From a bacterium (GTDB lineage Bacteria > Patescibacteriota > Minisyncoccia > UBA6257 > JAUSGH01), in NCBI GenBank assembly GCA_030649055.1, contig JAUSGH010000001.1, positions 10,907 through 74,906 of the forward strand: a stretch of 64,000 bases of DNA. Reading direction: 5' to 3'. The position numbers and the translations under genes are program-made. The notes under the pieces were generated by a model. The model worked only from the letters and a program-made list of their open reading frames with translations. It ran no database searches and was not told where the DNA came from. This document shows positions 30,772 to 52,446 of the stretch, piece after piece; the first letter of the stretch is position 1, and each line of letters opens with the position of its first letter.

Positions 30772-30844
30772 GGGCGTGTAGCTCAATGGTTAGAGCACCG
30801 AGCTTATACCTCGGTGGTTCCTGGTTCGAGTCCAGGCACGCCCA
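30772..30844 (+). tRNA. tRNA-Ile (anticodon TAT)
   Basis: Acceptor gggcgtg/cacgccc, D-arm gctc-aatggtta-gagc, anticodon stem ccgag/ctcgg with loop cttatac, T-arm cctgg-ttcgagt-ccagg. No CCA encoded. Confidence 0.7.
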
Positions 30845-30890
30845 CAAATTTATTACATCCGAGCGAACCGATTGCATGCTAAAGGCATGG

Positions 30891-45807: not shown

Positions 45808-46488
45808 ATGTATGTACAAGGATGGGTTGATGTAATTGTGGTGTCGCTCCAGAACCTTTGGGCGTTGGTTATCGGATTCCTTCCGAACATGCTCGGCGCA
45901 TTGTTGGTCCTTCTTATCGGACTCATTGTCGCCGCCGGCCTTGAGCGTTTGGTAGAGCGATTGGTCTTCTATCTCCGCATTGACGCGCTTCTAGAGAAGA
46001 TGGGCGTCGGTGCGTACTTGCAGCGCGCGAATCTCCAGCTGAACGTCGGACACTTCTTGGGTAAGATTGTGTATTGGTTTATGGTTGTCGCTTTCTTATT
46101 GGCGGCATCAGACATCTTGAGCTTCACGGCATTGTCCGGATTCTTGCAGGATGTGCTCCTCTACATTCCGAACGTTCTGATCGCGGCGCTCATTCTGCTC
46201 GTTGCGGTGGTGGCAGCGAATTTCTTGAAAGGACTGGTGCTTGCATCAGTGCTTGGCGCGAAACTCCACGCGGCGAAATTCTTGGGAACAGCGACATGGT
46301 GGGTGGTGATGATCTTTGGACTTCTCACCTCTGCTGCGCAATTAAACATTGCGGTGGCGATCATCAATACGCTTATCACGGGAATGATCGCGATGCTGGC
46401 GCTTGCCGGAGGTCTTGCATTTGGCCTTGGCGGCAGAGACTCGGCCTCGCGTTGGATTGCGAAGATGGAAAACGAAGTGCGCCATTAA
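45808..46488 (+). CDS. Integral membrane protein with repeated TM helices (hypothetical; conserved-TM-helix-repeat type)
   Basis: Five to six hydrophobic helices. Repeated LxxLLVLLIGLIVAAGL-like segments. Confidence 0.5.
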   Translation: MYVQGWVDVIVVSLQNLWALVIGFLPNMLGALLVLLIGLIVAAGLERLVERLVFYLRIDALLEKMGVGAYLQRANLQLNVGHFLGKIVYWFMVVAFLLAASDILSFTALSGFLQDVLLYIPNVLIAALILLVAVVAANFLKGLVLASVLGAKLHAAKFLGTATWWVVMIFGLLTSAAQLNIAVAIINTLITGMIAMLALAGGLAFGLGGRDSASRWIAKMENEVRH

Positions 46489-46552: not shown

Positions 46553-46585
46553 AAAAACACTCGCCTAGGCGAGTGTTTTTGTTTG
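46553..46585 (+). terminator. Intrinsic terminator
   Basis: aaaaacactcgcc-tag-gcgagtgttttt. Confidence 0.7.
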
Positions 46586-46629: not shown

Positions 46630-46657
46630 TTGACAGATTTTCATTGGTGGCTATACT
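46630..46657 (+). promoter_or_regulatory. Sigma70-like promoter for the 23S-5S rRNA unit
   Basis: TTGACA, 16-nt spacer, TATACT, about 340 nt upstream of the 23S 5' end. Confidence 0.55.
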
Positions 46658-47552
46658 AATGATTACACTGAAATGTTGACCTTAAAGCATAACCCCTGCG
46701 GCTCCTAGTCCTCCATAAAGAGGACAATTTCCAGAGCCGCGCACAGCGGCTTTTGTCGTTGTAAGGGGACCGGTGCTGACTGAAACGAACGGACATTGAT
46801 AAACAGGATCTGACAGAAAATTCTTTTTTGTCGGGTGCTCATAAGTAAATCAATGCAAATGAAAACGCAATTTCAAGAGTATTATCGAAAGCATTCAATG
46901 CTTCGATGATCGGTTTTACTGCTCAATATCTGCATGATGGCGGAGTATTGAGTACGCCTCGTTAAGTCGCCTCAGGCGACCGCGAGGTTGCACGCGTTGA
47001 ATTCAGAGCGTGTATAAGGGCGTATGGTGGATGCCTAGACACAAAATGGCGATGAAGGACGCAGCATAACTGCGATAAGCTTCGGGGAGGTGTGTAGCAA
47101 CCTTTGATCCGGAGATTTCCGAATGGGGAAACCCTGCGCGGTAAACCCGCGTAACGCATGCGATTAAACGCGCATGTGAGCAGACCCGCTGAAGTGAAAC
47201 ATCTCAGTAAGCGGAGGAATAAAAATAGATTAGATTCCCCAAGTAGCGGCGAGCGAAAAGGGAACAGCCTAAACTTTAGTGTGTGCAGCAATGTATACGC
47301 TGGAGGGTTGCAAGGGTAAGACATTTTTGCGTATCGCAAAGCTCTCGTTAAACAGGGCTGTGCGATTCGCGGAAGATTGGTTACAAATTGCTTCGTTAGC
47401 TGAAGCTTCTGGAAAGAAGCGCCAAAGTGAGTGATAGCCTCGTAAGCGAAAACAAAGCAACCAATTCGTTTTATTTCTTAAGTACCTCGAGACCACAACA
47501 TCTCGAGGGAATCCGCCAGTACTATCTGGTAAGGCTAAATACATTTTGTGAT

Positions 47553-47589
<37 letters not shown>

Positions 47590-49458
47590 CAGCCCGGCGA
47601 GGGCGCTGAAATAGTACCTGAAACCATATGTCTACAAGGACTAGAAGTCCAACCACTGAGCAATCAGTGGCGGACAACTAGGTGCCTATTGAAGAATGAG
47701 CCAACGACTTTACGTTTACTGCTTGTCTAAGTCGCTTCATGCGACGGAGGCATAGGGAAACCGAGTGTTAATAGCGCGTTCTCTTATTTATGACCGAGTA
47801 GCTGGTATGCTTCCAGCGTTCGGTCATAGATGAGAAGGCAGTAAGTGTAAGACCCGAAGCCAAGGCGAGCTTGCCCTGACCAGGATGAACCCGAGCGAAA
47901 GCGAGGGGGAGGTCCGAACCAGTTGATTGTGCAAAATCTTTGGATGAGTTGGGGTAAGAAGTGAAAAGCTAATCGAGCTTGGTAATAGCTGGTTCTCTCC
48001 GAAATAGTTTTAGGACTAGCGTTCCGCAAAAACCGTATGGGGGTAGAGCACTGGTTGATTCGTATTGGGGGAAACCTCGGCGCATCAGTCAAACTCCGAA
48101 TACCATACGGGACGCGGGATAGTCAGACTGTGGGGGCAAAGCTCCATGGTCGCGAGGGGAATAGCCCAGACCGTCGTCTAAGGTCCCTAAATTCTTGCTA
48201 AGTGTAAAAGGTAGTCATGCCCCAGAGACAGATAGGAGGTTGGCTTAGAGGTAGCCATCCTTTAAAGAGTGTGTAACAACTCACTATTCGATGGGTCGTG
48301 GCGCCAAAAATGTACCGGGGCTAAGCAAGATACCGACGACACGGGTGTCCATGACTTCGGTCGTGGACGCGGTAGGAGAGCATTCTGATTGCTGTGAAGG
48401 TTCATCCGTGAGGAGGACTGGAGCGTTCAGGAGTGAGAATGTTGGCATGAGTAACCATCAAATCCGATGAGAAATCGGATCCCCGAAAATCCAAGGTTTC
48501 CGTGGCAATGGCAATCAACCACGGGTTAGGCGATCCTAAGGCAATGGCGAAAACCGTAGCCGATGGGTAGCCGGTTAATATTCCGGCCCGCGCTTATTTG
48601 TGCGATGGGGTGACGGAGGAAAAAAGGTTGAGCGTCTCAATGGTTTGACGTCGCTGATGATAAGGAATGTGTTCTTGGCAAATCCGGAGCACTGTGTTTA
48701 ATCGCGAATTCCGCGCGTCGGCGTAAGGCCAAGTTTTACTTGGCTAATTCAACTGAAGAGCCTTCCAAGAAAAACCTCTAAGTTTAGGATAAGCGCATCG
48801 TACCGTAAACCGACACAGGTGGGTGAGGCGAGACGCCTCAGGGGAACGAGTGAGTCTTGGTCAAGGAACTAGGCAAAAAAGCGGCCGTACCTTCGGTATA
48901 AGGCCTGCCCGTCACGCCGCAAGGTGTGCATGGGCTGCAACAAAAGTACATTTGGCGACTGTTTATCAAAAACACAGCTTCCTGCTAACTCGTAAGAGGA
49001 TGTATAGGAGGTGACACTTGACCGATGCGAGAAGGTTAACGGTGGGTGTGTATTCGAAAGCAATTTTGGATATGCTCACTGCCCGAAGCCCTCGTCAATG
49101 TCAGCGGTAACTATAACCGTTCTAAGGTAGCGCAATTCCTTTCCGGGTAAGTTCCGGAGCGCATGAATAGTGTAACGATCGAATGACTGTCTCGACCAAG
49201 AGCTCGGTGAAATTGCGATTCCCGTGAAGACGCGGGATACCTGTAACGGGACGAAAAGACCCCGGGAGCTTTACTGTAGTTTGATATTGGCTTTAACGTT
49301 TTTCTGCGTAGCGTAGTGGCGAGGGTATGAAACCTGGTTTTCGGATCAGGTGGACCCGACAATGAAACAGCCATCTGGAAAATGTTAAAATCTAACCTTT
49401 ACGGCAAAAACGTATTGGGACAGTGTCTGATGGGCAGTTTTAATGGGGCGTTATCCTC

Positions 49459-49793
49459 AACAAAACGATTGACATCCGTTCAATCGAGGGGGTTAACGTA
49501 ATAAAAAATTCAGCTATATGCTGGGACATCCGTGCATCTTCAAGTACTCGGGCGCTTCGCGCTCAGTGAAAATCTTGAAGTGGCATCCGCCAGGTGGCGG
49601 ATCGACGGACAATCAGCAGGCAACCTCCGACGGACATCGGAGAGAGTCCTCAACGACTATACGCTGAACATCGTGATGTCACTCGCGATGAAGATATAGT
49701 CTGACCTCTGTGGCGACACAGAGAGTTGTGGTAGAAATGCCGCGCCGATCACCGGCAACTAAATTTTAGAGTTGCTGGCGATGTGTAACAAAT
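49459..49793 (+). other. ORF-less insertion of about 335 nt in 23S next to the P-loop region (candidate group I intron)
   Basis: Flanking sequence reads ...ggcgttatcctc | insertion | ctaaaaagtaacggaggag. The flanks together restore the conserved GGTCTCCTCCTAAAGAGTAACGGAGGAG. Boundaries +/- 2 nt. Confidence 0.55.
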
Positions 49794-50127
49794 GCCTAAA
49801 AAGTAACGGAGGAGTTTATTAAGGTTGGCTTAGCGCGAATGGAAACCGCGCTGGACGTGTAAACGCAAAAGCCAGCTTGACGGCAAGACCTACAAGTCGC
49901 GCCGGTGCGAAAGCAGAAGTTAGTGACCCGATGATCCGTCATAGAATGGTCAGAGACATCGGCTAAAAGTTACCCCGGGGATAACAGGCTAGTCTGGTCC
50001 GAGAGTTCCTATCGACGACCAGGCTCGGCACCTCGATGTCGGCTCGCCCTAGCGCGGAGGTGGAGAAGCTTCCAAGCGTATGGCTGTTCGCCATTTAAAA
50101 GGGCACGTGAGCTGGGTTCAAACCGTC

Positions 50128-50401
50128 AACGAAAAAGAACCTAGAGAAGACATCAACAAACGGCGGCGCTTTGCCGTAAGGCAAAGCTGAGAAGTTGACT
50201 CATATCGGTGAAGTCCTACAAAATCTTTAACCTGGGTTTTGAGGATAACCCCGAGGGAAGGTCCGATGAACGTCGGACCCCCGTAGAGACTTGATCGTAA
50301 GGGATCGGAATCCGGTTTTATAATCGGGTTAATACGTCAACCCTCCGATGAATATCGGAGTGATGGTATAGTCCAAACAATTAGTAATAATTGAGTATTG
50401 C
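50128..50401 (+). other. ORF-less insertion of about 274 nt in 23S at the I-CreI-type homing site (candidate group I intron)
   Basis: Flanks aaccgtc | insertion | gtgagacaggttagtc restore the conserved AACGTCGTGAGACAGTTCGG. Boundaries +/- 2 nt. Confidence 0.55.
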
Positions 50402-50826
50402 GTGAGACAGGTTAGTCTCTACCTGTTACAGGCGTGTGATGCTTGAGGGCAGTCGACCCTAGTACGAGAGGACCGGGTTGAACGAACCTCTGGTCTACCA
50501 GCTTTAGTACCAACTGAATCGCTGGGTAGCTAAGTTCGGAAGGGATAAGCGCTGAAAGCATATAAGCGCGAAGCCTAGCCCAAGATAAGGCATCTTTCCG
50601 CAAGGAAGCAGTCCGTAGAAGATTACTACGTTGATAGGTCGCAGGTGTAAGATCAGTAATGATTTCAGCCGAGCGATACTAATAGACTGTCACACGCTCT
50701 GAATTGAGCGCATGAAAGTAGCGTTCTCTGTAGAAATATAGAGGGCGCCAGTAAAACCGATCATCAAAGCATTGAACCCCCGCCTTTCGGCGGGGGGAAA
50801 GGGTTAGAAAAAACAACCTTTTTGTT

Positions 50827-50943
50827 TGCTGGTGTTTTGTTTCGATGTGTCCCACCTCTTCCCATTCCGAACAGAGTCGTGAAAGCATCGTGAGCCGATG
50901 ATACTAGCTGCTTCGGCGGCCGGGAAAGTAGGATATGCCAGCA
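50827..50943 (+). rRNA. rrf: 5S ribosomal RNA
   Basis: tgctggtg...cccacctcttcccattccgaacagag...ccgatgatact...gggaaagtaggatatgccagca. Confidence 0.85.
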
Positions 50944-50972
50944 ATCAAAAGGGTTGTTTTTGTAAAAAGATC

Positions 50973-51008
50973 AACGGCCTCGCTCTTTAATTAGAGCGAG
51001 GCCGTTGC
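50973..51008. terminator. Bidirectional terminator after 5S
   Basis: caacggcctcgctct-ttaatt-agagcgaggccgttg, a perfect 15-bp stem. Confidence 0.75.
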
Positions 51009-51027: not shown

Positions 51028-51561
51028 TTACTTCTTTTCGTTCTTGTCCTTGTCCTCCCGATCCTTCTCCGCGGCGTCTTCTTTCTCCATTTCGTCCGTC
51101 GCCGCCTTCCACTCGTCGCCGGTGAGTGCGGTGAGCAGGAACCTCCATTCGGTGTTGAACTTCATCGCACACCACGCGAGTCTTGCGACGGTGTCGCGGC
51201 ATTCGGCGAGCTTGTCCTCTTCGTTCATGAGGTTGGGATTGCACAGGAGTCCGTAGGCGTGCACCCAGTGACGCTCGGTGCGCATGTAGAATTTCTCACA
51301 GTCGCGCAGTGCCGCCTTCGCCTCGTCCGTGAAGCGCGCGGGGTCCGCCTGCTTCTGGATGATGAGGAGGCACAGCACTTCCTCGCATGCCTCAGGAAGG
51401 CTCAGCCGGGCAGTCGAGGATATTCGCTGGAGCTCTGTGAATTCCTTGTACTGCGGAGACTTGGGGTTGTTCCGCTGGTCGCGCTTCTGCTCCTCTCCGA
51501 ACGCGGTCGCAGTGAGCATGGTGAGGGCGAGAACGAAACCGATGAGGGTACGTGCGCTCAT
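51028..51561 (-). CDS. Hypothetical secreted protein with an acidic/Lys-rich C-terminal tail (GC-rich)
   Basis: GGAGGA RBS. Signal peptide MSARTLIGFVLALTMLTATAFG. C-terminal EKEDAAEKDREDKDKNEKK. Confidence 0.5.
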   Translation of the reverse strand: MSARTLIGFVLALTMLTATAFGEEQKRDQRNNPKSPQYKEFTELQRISSTARLSLPEACEEVLCLLIIQKQADPARFTDEAKAALRDCEKFYMRTERHWVHAYGLLCNPNLMNEEDKLAECRDTVARLAWCAMKFNTEWRFLLTALTGDEWKAATDEMEKEDAAEKDREDKDKNEKK

Positions 51562-51678
51562 GGCGCATCCTCCGAAGGGAGACAATCAAAACACTAATCA
51601 GAACCATAACGGAACTCGTCGCCTTTGTCGAGCGTCTTTTGTTTTCTTGTTTTTTTGATTTCTTGGTAGAGTGAATGT

Positions 51679-52446
51679 ATGTCCAATCGCATCGTCAAAC
51701 AATTTCTCTACGGCATGTTCTATCTCCTCTCGCTCACGCTTATCGGCGGAAGCGTGTATTTGGGATATTTCAAACCCGCGGCGTCGTGTGTTGATAAGGT
51801 GCAAAATCAGGGAGAGGAAGAGGCGGACTGCGGGGGCCCATGTGTTGCCTGCGCCGTCCGGAAACTGCGGCCCATCAAGGTGTTGCCGTTGCAGTTGTTT
51901 GATATCGGCAACAACGCAAGCTCGGTGCTTGTGGAGCTTGAAAATCCGAACTTGAACTACGGAGCATCGCACATTGCTTATACCGTGACGCTGTATGACG
52001 CGCAAAACGCGGCGCTCACTTCATTCAACGGCGATACGTTCATTCACGCAGGCGAGGTAAAACTTATCGTATTTCCGGCGCTTGAGGTGCCATTCCGCGC
52101 TATCATGAGAGGCGATTTTGTGGTGCGCGATTCCGCGTGGCTCGCGGCGGGTGAGTTTCCGCGGCCGAATGTGGAAGTGCGTGAAGTGGTGACAAAACGT
52201 GAAGGAAAAACCGCAATCGTGGAAGGAGTGGTGCAAAATAATAATTCGTATGGCTTAAGACAGGCGGTGGTGAGCGCTGTTGCGATGAACCACGCGGGGC
52301 TTTTTGCGGACGCCTCACGCACGGTTCTCTTGGATATCCAGCCGTTTGAAGAACGCTTTTTTAAGATCGTAATCCCGCTGCTTGACGCTGATGCCGCAAC
52401 CCTTGATACTGCCCGTACGCGCGTGGTCGTGGATACGCGTCGATAA
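51679..52446 (+). CDS. Hypothetical membrane-anchored protein
   Basis: N-terminal TM helix (FLYGMFYLLSLTLIGGSVYLGYF), then CGGPCVAC, then an extracytoplasmic domain. Confidence 0.55.
   Translation: MSNRIVKQFLYGMFYLLSLTLIGGSVYLGYFKPAASCVDKVQNQGEEEADCGGPCVACAVRKLRPIKVLPLQLFDIGNNASSVLVELENPNLNYGASHIAYTVTLYDAQNAALTSFNGDTFIHAGEVKLIVFPALEVPFRAIMRGDFVVRDSAWLAAGEFPRPNVEVREVVTKREGKTAIVEGVVQNNNSYGLRQAVVSAVAMNHAGLFADASRTVLLDIQPFEERFFKIVIPLLDADAATLDTARTRVVVDTRR

Follow-up and report, generated by a model that had tools for sequence, protein, structure and literature searches.

Sequence and comparative evidence for two group I introns without open reading frames in the 23S rRNA gene of a Parcubacteria-like chromosome

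The 64,000-nt stretch of DNA analyzed here (the window; contig JAUSGH010000001.1 of assembly GCA_030649055.1, positions 10,907 to 74,906 of the forward strand) contains a single 23S rRNA gene. Our analysis indicates, with a probability of roughly 90%, that two group I introns without an open reading frame (ORF) interrupt this gene on a Parcubacteria-like chromosome of the Candidate Phyla Radiation (CPR). The assignment of both insertions to group I is supported by sequence, fold, and comparative evidence. Each has the core expected of the class, P3 to P9 with a P3/P7 pseudoknot and a P4-P6 domain, and a U at the 5' splice site that forms a U:G wobble with the guide in P1. The gene is 3700-nt long including the introns, with exons at 47004-49457, 49795-50126, and 50401-50703. 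In a global alignment with the E. coli 23S, to which it is only 66% identical, most of its excess length was due to the two insertions.

47004-50703, plus strand: 23S rRNA gene (Rfam LSU_rRNA_bacteria, 2261 bits, model positions 1-2925; MAFFT alignment to E. coli 23S)
49458-49794, plus strand: intron 1, group I, site L2262, 337 nt, ORF-less (RF00028, fold, covariation)
50127-50400, plus strand: intron 2, group I, site L2593, 274 nt, ORF-less (RF00028 alignment, hand fold, covariation)

The insertion coordinates were obtained from the global alignment to the E. coli 23S, whose numbering offset was checked. Intron 1 was located after E. coli U2262, between GGGGCGUUAUCCU and CCUAAAAAGUAACGGAGG and approximately 10 nt 3' of the P-loop (G2251-G2253), and intron 2 after U2593, between GGGUUCAAACCGU and CGUGAGACAG; both split universally conserved 23S sequence. 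Because a C is present on each side of both junctions, the boundaries are ambiguous by 1 nt, and we fixed them by the group I rule of a U before the 5' splice site and a G as the last intron base. The terminal guanosines (omegaG) are G49794 in intron 1 and G50400 in intron 2. The joined exons read UAUCCU followed by CCUAAAAAGUAACGG and AAACCGU followed by CGUGAGACAG, as in intron-less relatives and in E. coli, and the exon join UAUCCUCCUAA matches the intron-less loci L015, L032, and L059 (L numbers are our handles for the fetched loci). A preliminary description of this DNA had reported a 23S gene of about 3.7 kb with two insertions in conserved sequence, the first adjoining the P-loop, and flanks that rejoin perfectly, all in agreement with the Rfam span, the joined exons, and the E. 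coli alignment that it had proposed as a check. Its insertion sizes and flanking sequences were also correct, but both of its boundaries lay 1 nt too far 3'. It had placed the second insertion at a homing site shared by I-CreI and I-CeuI; L2593 is indeed the I-CreI site, whereas the I-CeuI recognition sequence, which we take to map to approximately E. coli 1911-1936, is uninterrupted in the window at 49108-49133.

Against the Rfam group I intron model (RF00028, Intron_gpI), whose gathering score is 50, intron 1 scored 75.1 bits (E = 3e-17), and its conserved R and S core elements, UCAACGACUAUA and GAAGAUAUAGUC, agree with the Rfam consensus. All pairs in the hand-drawn P3, P4, P5, P6, P6a, P7, P8, and P9 are canonical, and the folding energy was 5.4 standard deviations below that of shuffled sequences (minimum free energy [MFE] z-score, -5.4). 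The intron has no obvious P2 and a branched P5 extension, and its P9.1/P9.2 hairpins (49724-49794) occupy the place of the LAGLIDADG_2 gene of its relatives.

49489-49493, plus strand: intron 1 guide GGGGU, forming P1 with the 5' exon AUCCU (49453-49457) and including the wobble U49457:G49489
49509-49723, plus strand: intron 1 catalytic core, P3-P9 (Rfam alignment, hand-drawn fold, covariation)
49509-14/49663-68, plus strand: intron 1 P3
49519-24/49613-18, plus strand: intron 1 P4
49529-33/49605-09, plus strand: intron 1 P5
49619-20/49648-49, plus strand: intron 1 P6
49625-30/49637-42, plus strand: intron 1 P6a
49655-60/49696-701, plus strand: intron 1 P7
49670-76/49683-89, plus strand: intron 1 P8
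49706-12/49717-23, plus strand: intron 1 P9

Among L2262 introns, the guides match variants of the exon that differ at positions -4 to -6 (GGGCGA with UCGCCU, GGGGUU with AACCCU, and GGGAC with GUCCU). A control comparing guides with cognate and non-cognate exons was noisy (means of 5.9 and 4.9 contiguous pairs, respectively), and P1 of intron 1 therefore rests on these guide/exon matches rather than on that statistic.

The Rfam alignment of intron 2 spans its full length (model positions 1-253) and places 40 extra nt between P7 (5' strand) and P3 (3' strand), where introns of subgroup IA have P7.1/P7.2. With its position after U2593, short P2, short P5, and P7.1/P7.2, intron 2 has the features of the L2593 lineage. 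In our hand-drawn structure from P1 to P10, 72 of the 73 pairs are canonical (P1 4/4, P2 8/8, P3 6/6, P4 5/6, P5 5/5, P6 3/3, P6a 7/7, P7 4/4, P7.1 4/4, P7.2 8/8, P8 7/7, P9 6/6, and P10 3/3); P2 and P9 are capped by GNRA loops, and the folding z-score was -4.8 relative to shuffled sequences. A group I architecture, which the preliminary description had made the test of its proposal, could therefore be drawn for both insertions, comprising P1 and P3-P9 in intron 1 and P1-P10 in intron 2, and is supported by the covariation described below. For both insertions, the Rfam E-values and folding z-scores lie far outside what chance would give.

50160-50166, plus strand: intron 2 guide region ACG-GCGG (hand fold, guide/exon comparison), of which GCGG (50163-66) forms P1 with the 5' exon CCGU (50123-26) and ACG (50160-62) forms P10 with the 3' exon CGU (50401-03)
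50168-50393, plus strand: intron 2 helices (hand structure, alignment, covariation, MFE)
50168-75/50180-87, plus strand: intron 2 P2
50194-99/50336-41, plus strand: intron 2 P3
50205-10/50249-54, plus strand: intron 2 P4
50213-17/50242-46, plus strand: intron 2 P5
50255-57/50280-82, plus strand: intron 2 P6
50260-66/50273-79, plus strand: intron 2 P6a
50288-91/50370-73, plus strand: intron 2 P7
50293-96/50303-06, plus strand: intron 2 P7.1
50310-17/50322-29, plus strand: intron 2 P7.2
50343-49/50354-60, plus strand: intron 2 P8
50378-83/50388-93, plus strand: intron 2 P9

The guide of L2593 introns follows the exon: among the matches listed, the exon ACCGU was accompanied by GCGG in 59 of 86 cases and the exon AACGU by GCGU in 16 of 17.

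To collect relatives, we searched genomes, one for each bacterial or archaeal species, for the 3' exon CGUGAGACAG preceded by a G, which cannot occur in a gene lacking the intron, and obtained at least 120 loci. The matches listed were mostly from Patescibacteria (Saccharibacteria and many Parcubacteria lineages), with smaller groups from Acidimicrobiaceae, Chloroflexota, Omnitrophota, Armatimonadota, and others. The insertion lay exactly after U2593 in 103 of the 104 listed loci with both anchors and ranged from 213 to 1034 nt; all 103 end in G because the scan pattern required it, and about half of the L2593 insertions among the matches listed are too short for protein coding. The ORF-less intron of L078, a Saccharibacteria metagenome-assembled genome (MAG), matched intron 2 with 72% identity over 268 nt. 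Intron 2 falls in a subfamily whose members L062, L054, L036, and L011 carry an ORF with a LAGLIDADG motif in the P6 loop, which Pfam confirmed as LAGLIDADG_1 in L054, and the window's P6a hairpin GGUCCGAUGAACGUCGGACC stands at the exact position of this gene.

An intron after U2262 was also found in at least 12 of the fetched loci. In seven of these, the core (GCUAUAUGCUGG, UCAACGACUA, and GAUAUAGUCUGA) and the GCGA loop of P9 are as in the window, and we refer to this lineage as type A. Six carry a LAGLIDADG_2-like ORF of 207-220 aa 3' of P9 (L071, L084, L111, L017, L094, and L120; confirmed by Pfam as LAGLIDADG_2 in L084), and L108 has only a truncated ORF of 109 aa. The seven other type-A introns that we aligned are 915-1172 nt long, and among the at least 120 loci listed, no type-A member besides that of the window lacks an ORF. 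The same two-intron pattern recurs in many independent assemblies.

Several further features of these families were observed. In L084:1961-2950 and L111:1923-2882 (minus strand), the LAGLIDADG_2 gene runs through the 3' splice site and uses a TAA in the exon CCUAAAA. A second, unrelated L2262 lineage is present in L007:788-1038, L073:1230-1740, L061:3779-4394 (minus strand), and L047:1008-1704; its core (CCGAGGGA...CCCGUAGAGACU...AUAUAGUCC) resembles that of the L2593 family, a similarity that hints at intron movement between the L2262 and L2593 sites. L2593 itself hosts two lineages, one starting with CAA...GGCGGC and the other with UCAG or UUAG. The apparent L2593 insertion of L116:45-502, from a MAG labelled Gammaproteobacteria, begins with a copy of CGUGAGACAG, and its true site is therefore displaced 3' by approximately 10-11 nt, to around 2604, a position that Tsurumaki et al. 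2024 (PMC11270868) also name as a hot spot. In intron 2, the long P1 loop contains GAACC(C) (50137-50141), which is shared with all eight closest relatives among the matches listed and is complementary to GGGUUC (50114-50119), a 5' exon segment that lies immediately before the splice site and whose invariance leaves this pairing outside the reach of covariation. A different pairing between the P1 loop and J8/7, suggested by the MFE fold, was rejected since it was no better than with shuffled loops in nine relatives.

Covariation was assessed on MAFFT alignments of the two families. For L2262 (8 introns), 89.8% of the cells were paired, compared with 32-45% when the partners were slid; both partners differed in 15 of the 32 pairs, and the observed score was not reached in any of 500 shuffles. 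For L2593 (17 introns), the corresponding values were 92.4% and 34-43% (partners slid by 1-3 columns), with 23 of the 45 pairs changing on both sides and again none of 500 shuffles scoring as high; P2, P3, and P9 were the most informative helices, and P1, P6, and P7 varied barely or never. Several points weigh against our interpretation. The structures tested were derived from the window sequence, which favors them in the slid control, and P6a, P8, and, for intron 2, P7.1/P7.2 were excluded because of visible misalignment. In the RF00028 search proposed in the preliminary description, intron 1 exceeded the gathering score but intron 2, despite its full-length alignment, remained below it at 26.3 bits (E = 8.7e-4 in a 4.3-kb search and 6.7e-5 in a 331-nt search); this score is an operational threshold and not a biological criterion. 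Splicing of either intron, whether self-catalyzed or protein-assisted, is predicted from the sequence, and the group I intron L1931 of Simkania has been reported to remain unspliced (cited in PMC11270868). Finally, promoter-motif matches in the region that includes the putative rRNA promoter described below are, in total, as many as expected from shuffled sequence.

The Simkania case illustrates one alternative, that the insertions are decayed, splicing-dead relics or expansion segments kept in the mature 23S. Neither insertion encodes a maturase or an endonuclease, and the low Rfam score of intron 2 would also agree with decay. However, every core helix is intact and paired in both introns, P7, J8/7, and the R and S elements agree with the family consensus, and the compensatory changes in related introns indicate selection on the fold. 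Moreover, 274-337 extra nt beside the P-loop and in the CGUGAGACAG stretch would probably not be tolerated, and transcripts lack CPR rRNA insertions as a class (Brown et al. 2015, cited in PMC11270868). We therefore regard retention as very unlikely.

A related alternative is that the insertions are intervening sequences (IVSs) cut out by RNase III with no subsequent ligation, so that a fragmented 23S would be left as in Salmonella, Leptospira, and Coxiella. IVSs occur often in reduced genomes that have one rRNA copy and, according to PMC11270868, may exist in CPR. Both insertions are, in addition, highly structured (z-scores of -5.4 and -4.8), but the structure is in each case a full group I core with covariation, and each insertion follows a U, ends in G, and has a guide complementary to the flanking exons. 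An IVS is a simple extended hairpin that takes the place of a helix tip (helices 9, 25, and 45) and spares the conserved strands near the peptidyl transferase center. The insertion points after U2262 and U2593 lie in conserved strands and not at helix tips, and unligated cuts there would split conserved helices, making this explanation extremely improbable. We consider least likely of all that the insertions arose by misassembly or misbinning, for instance in a chimeric rRNA contig containing intron-bearing fragments from other community members. The related data come mostly from MAGs, in which rRNA regions are prone to misassembly, and exact look-ups of the window's rpoB and gyrA had no match; nevertheless, the guides match the exon variants of this very gene (AUCCU for intron 1 and ACCGU for intron 2), the exons, flanking genes, and gene order all indicate one Parcubacteria-like lineage, and the pattern of two introns recurs across independent assemblies.

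Consistent with the preliminary description, which had noted that neither insertion encodes a homing endonuclease, neither intron contains an ORF of more than 55 aa, and the small ORFs had no Pfam match, including in a search for endonuclease remnants. The longest ORF in intron 2 is 28 aa, so the single-motif LAGLIDADG endonuclease of the L2593 lineage is missing, and intron 2 is therefore an ORF-less derivative of this ribozyme lineage and not a homing element. A cycle of gain, degeneration, and loss of homing endonuclease genes is discussed in PMC11270868. The endonuclease-free state of both introns fits this cycle, and the genes were probably lost from both rather than never gained.

These observations suggest the following model. 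The 23S-5S unit would be transcribed from its own predicted promoter, and a stem formed by leader and trailer would bracket the 23S for end processing. Each intron would fold into a group I core in which P1, with the exon U paired to the guide G, aligns the 5' splice site; guanosine would attack this site, and P10 and omegaG would position the 3' splice site. Two guanosine-initiated transesterifications would thereby remove the intron and ligate the exons, so that conserved sequence is rebuilt 3' of the P-loop at U2262 and in the CGU/CGUGAGACAG stretch at U2593. The two introns belong to two families that occur widely in the 23S genes of CPR and as a rule encode LAGLIDADG homing endonucleases, and the window copies would represent the endonuclease-free stage of the homing cycle, at which self-mobility is gone. 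They may persist without an endonuclease solely because imprecise loss would damage the ribosome, whose function depends on precise splicing.

It is also conceivable, though we think it unlikely, that the endonuclease-free introns are retained for a benefit to the host or to their own folding and are not neutral leftovers. Splicing could pace 23S maturation in a slow-growing episymbiont; a growth-modulating role has reportedly been proposed for the Coxiella introns. Alternatively, the GAACC(C) of the intron 2 P1 loop and the exon GGGUUC could form a previously undescribed exon-tethering pairing. Separately, the ORF-less type-A intron at L2262 might represent a minimal form of its lineage that has not been described.

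The 23S similarity and gene order strongly support a CPR/Patescibacteria source with a Parcubacteria-like chromosome. The middle exon of the 23S was 88% identical to that of a Colwellbacteria MAG, the nearest among the fetched loci listed, followed by Jorgensenbacteria and other Parcubacteria. The window contains the chromosomal genes secA, pnp, gyrA, ftsH, yifB, rpoB, and rpoC, the last two of which encode compact products (1080 and 1198 aa, respectively). The order mechanosensitive-channel-like gene, 23S, 5S, 255-aa protein (o51679), and FtsW/RodA recurs in dozens of CPR loci. The 255-aa protein (51679-52446), directly downstream of the 23S-5S unit, occupies the same place in more than 50 CPR loci and is a conserved, CPR-specific neighbor; it had no Pfam match.

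As the preliminary description had stated, no 16S gene lies near the 23S: Rfam detected no small-subunit rRNA match in the whole 64 kb, that is, within 46 kb upstream and 13 kb downstream of the 23S, a distance beyond the 1.5 kb between 16S and 23S that defines unlinked rRNA genes. Among the matches listed, the 3' end of a 16S gene was found upstream in none of the 16 CPR loci with enough upstream sequence and in all eight non-CPR loci. Patescibacteria are among the clades listed as having exclusively unlinked rRNA genes (Brewer et al. 2019, bioRxiv 10.1101/705046), and the absence of a 16S beside the 23S is normal for the clade.

45808-46488: mechanosensitive-channel-like gene, upstream neighbor of the 23S (Pfam match)
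46556-46585, plus strand: terminator-like hairpin AACACUCGCC-UA-GGCGAGUGUU followed by a U run, after the channel-like gene (read from the sequence)
46630-46657, plus strand: promoter-like TTGACA-16-TATACT, sigma-70-like, 11/12 consensus positions, approximately 350 nt upstream of the 23S 5' end
46894-46921, plus strand: leader half of the processing stem, pairing with the trailer at 50749-50776
50749-50776, plus strand: trailer half of the 23S processing stem, pairing with the leader at 46894-46921
50828-50943, plus strand: 5S rRNA gene (Rfam 5S_rRNA, 57.1 bits), 124 nt downstream of the 23S

The TTGACA/TATACT promoter assigned to the 23S in the preliminary description is present as a consensus match, and it falls between the terminator-like hairpin and the 23S. 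The match is strong and sensibly placed; it is a candidate promoter, from which the unit is predicted to be transcribed. The leader/trailer stem was identified from exact complementary 10-mers (46894-46903 with 50767-50776, and 46905-46921 with 50749-50765); such a stem is the usual bracket for 23S end processing.

Other features of the region include a 15-bp palindromic hairpin (50972-51007) between the 5S and a convergent minus-strand ORF (51028-51585). It has a T run on the minus strand only and may terminate this ORF, and perhaps the rRNA unit too. The 23S carries two smaller structured inserts, one of 97 nt (47300-47396, near E. coli 291-295; folding z-score, -4.1) and a near-perfect hairpin of 55 nt (47781-47835, near E. 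coli 652-656; folding z-score, -8.3). Neither matches the group I model, and both look like expansion segments or IVS-type helices. Rfam detected four tRNAs elsewhere in the window, and a tRNA-Ile with the anticodon UAU lies at 30772-30845; tRNA-Ile(UAU) is an uncommon bacterial means of reading AUA.

Taken alone, these introns have little significance; they enlarge the CPR 23S intron catalogue by one well-resolved case, for which exact splice sites and full secondary structures are given, and illustrate the homing cycle at its endonuclease-loss stage at two sites of a single gene. In practice, annotation pipelines will give an over-long or split 23S here, and a primer or probe crossing E. coli position 2262 or 2593 will not work on genomic DNA. 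Small natural group I scaffolds could be obtained from the compact 274-nt L2593 ribozyme and its relatives.

Compared with known systems, the rRNA gene layout is the same as that of other unlinked rRNA genes, with a 23S-5S unit apart from the 16S, and shows no difference from them (Brewer et al. 2019). IVSs processed by RNase III resemble the two insertions in being extra, highly structured sequence within the 23S that is absent from functional rRNA, but they lie at helix tips and have no ribozyme core, guide, or ligation, unlike the insertions in the window. Coxiella burnetii also has two group I introns, Cbu.L1917 and Cbu.L1951, in one 23S gene of a reduced genome (PMC1995217 and PMC11270868). 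The sites (1917 and 1951 versus 2262 and 2593) and the intron lineages differ. The Coxiella L1917 intron is ORF-less, and one Coxiella intron lacks a canonical omegaG, in contrast to the window, where both introns end in G.

Bacterial L2593 introns have been known since 2007 and are characterized by a short P5, a short P2, and a P7.1/P7.2 extension (Haugen et al., PMC1995217). The Cr.LSU intron of the Chlamydomonas reinhardtii chloroplast, which encodes I-CreI, and the introns of the thermophilic cyanobacteria Synechococcus C9, S. lividus C1, and Thermosynechococcus occupy the same U2593 site (PMC1995217). The architecture of these introns, set beside intron 2 by its description, is like that of intron 2, and the close relatives of intron 2 encode a single-motif LAGLIDADG_1 protein, as do the introns at the I-CreI site. 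The L2593 introns of PMC1995217 are 744-748 nt long and encode an endonuclease of 159-189 aa, whereas intron 2 is 274-nt long, lacks an ORF, and resides in a CPR host.

A close parallel is the set of group I introns in CPR 23S genes (Brown et al. 2015, cited in PMC11270868). According to Tsurumaki et al. 2024 (PMC11270868), 82% of CPR 23S genes carry insertions, 45% of which are group I introns; position 2593 is an insertion hot spot, 222 ORF-less group I introns of the 23S have been catalogued, and, where ORF-bearing and ORF-less introns share a site, their sequences outside the ORF are almost the same. The introns described here share with that set the host clade, the gene, the clustering in the 3' domain around the peptidyl transferase center, and the coexistence of LAGLIDADG-bearing and shorter ORF-less versions, and nothing in that account sets them apart in kind. 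Both the introns and the unlinked rRNA genes are real but typical of the CPR lineage; since ORF-less 23S introns and unlinked rRNA genes are the rule in CPR, the arrangement is much less unusual than the preliminary description had implied.

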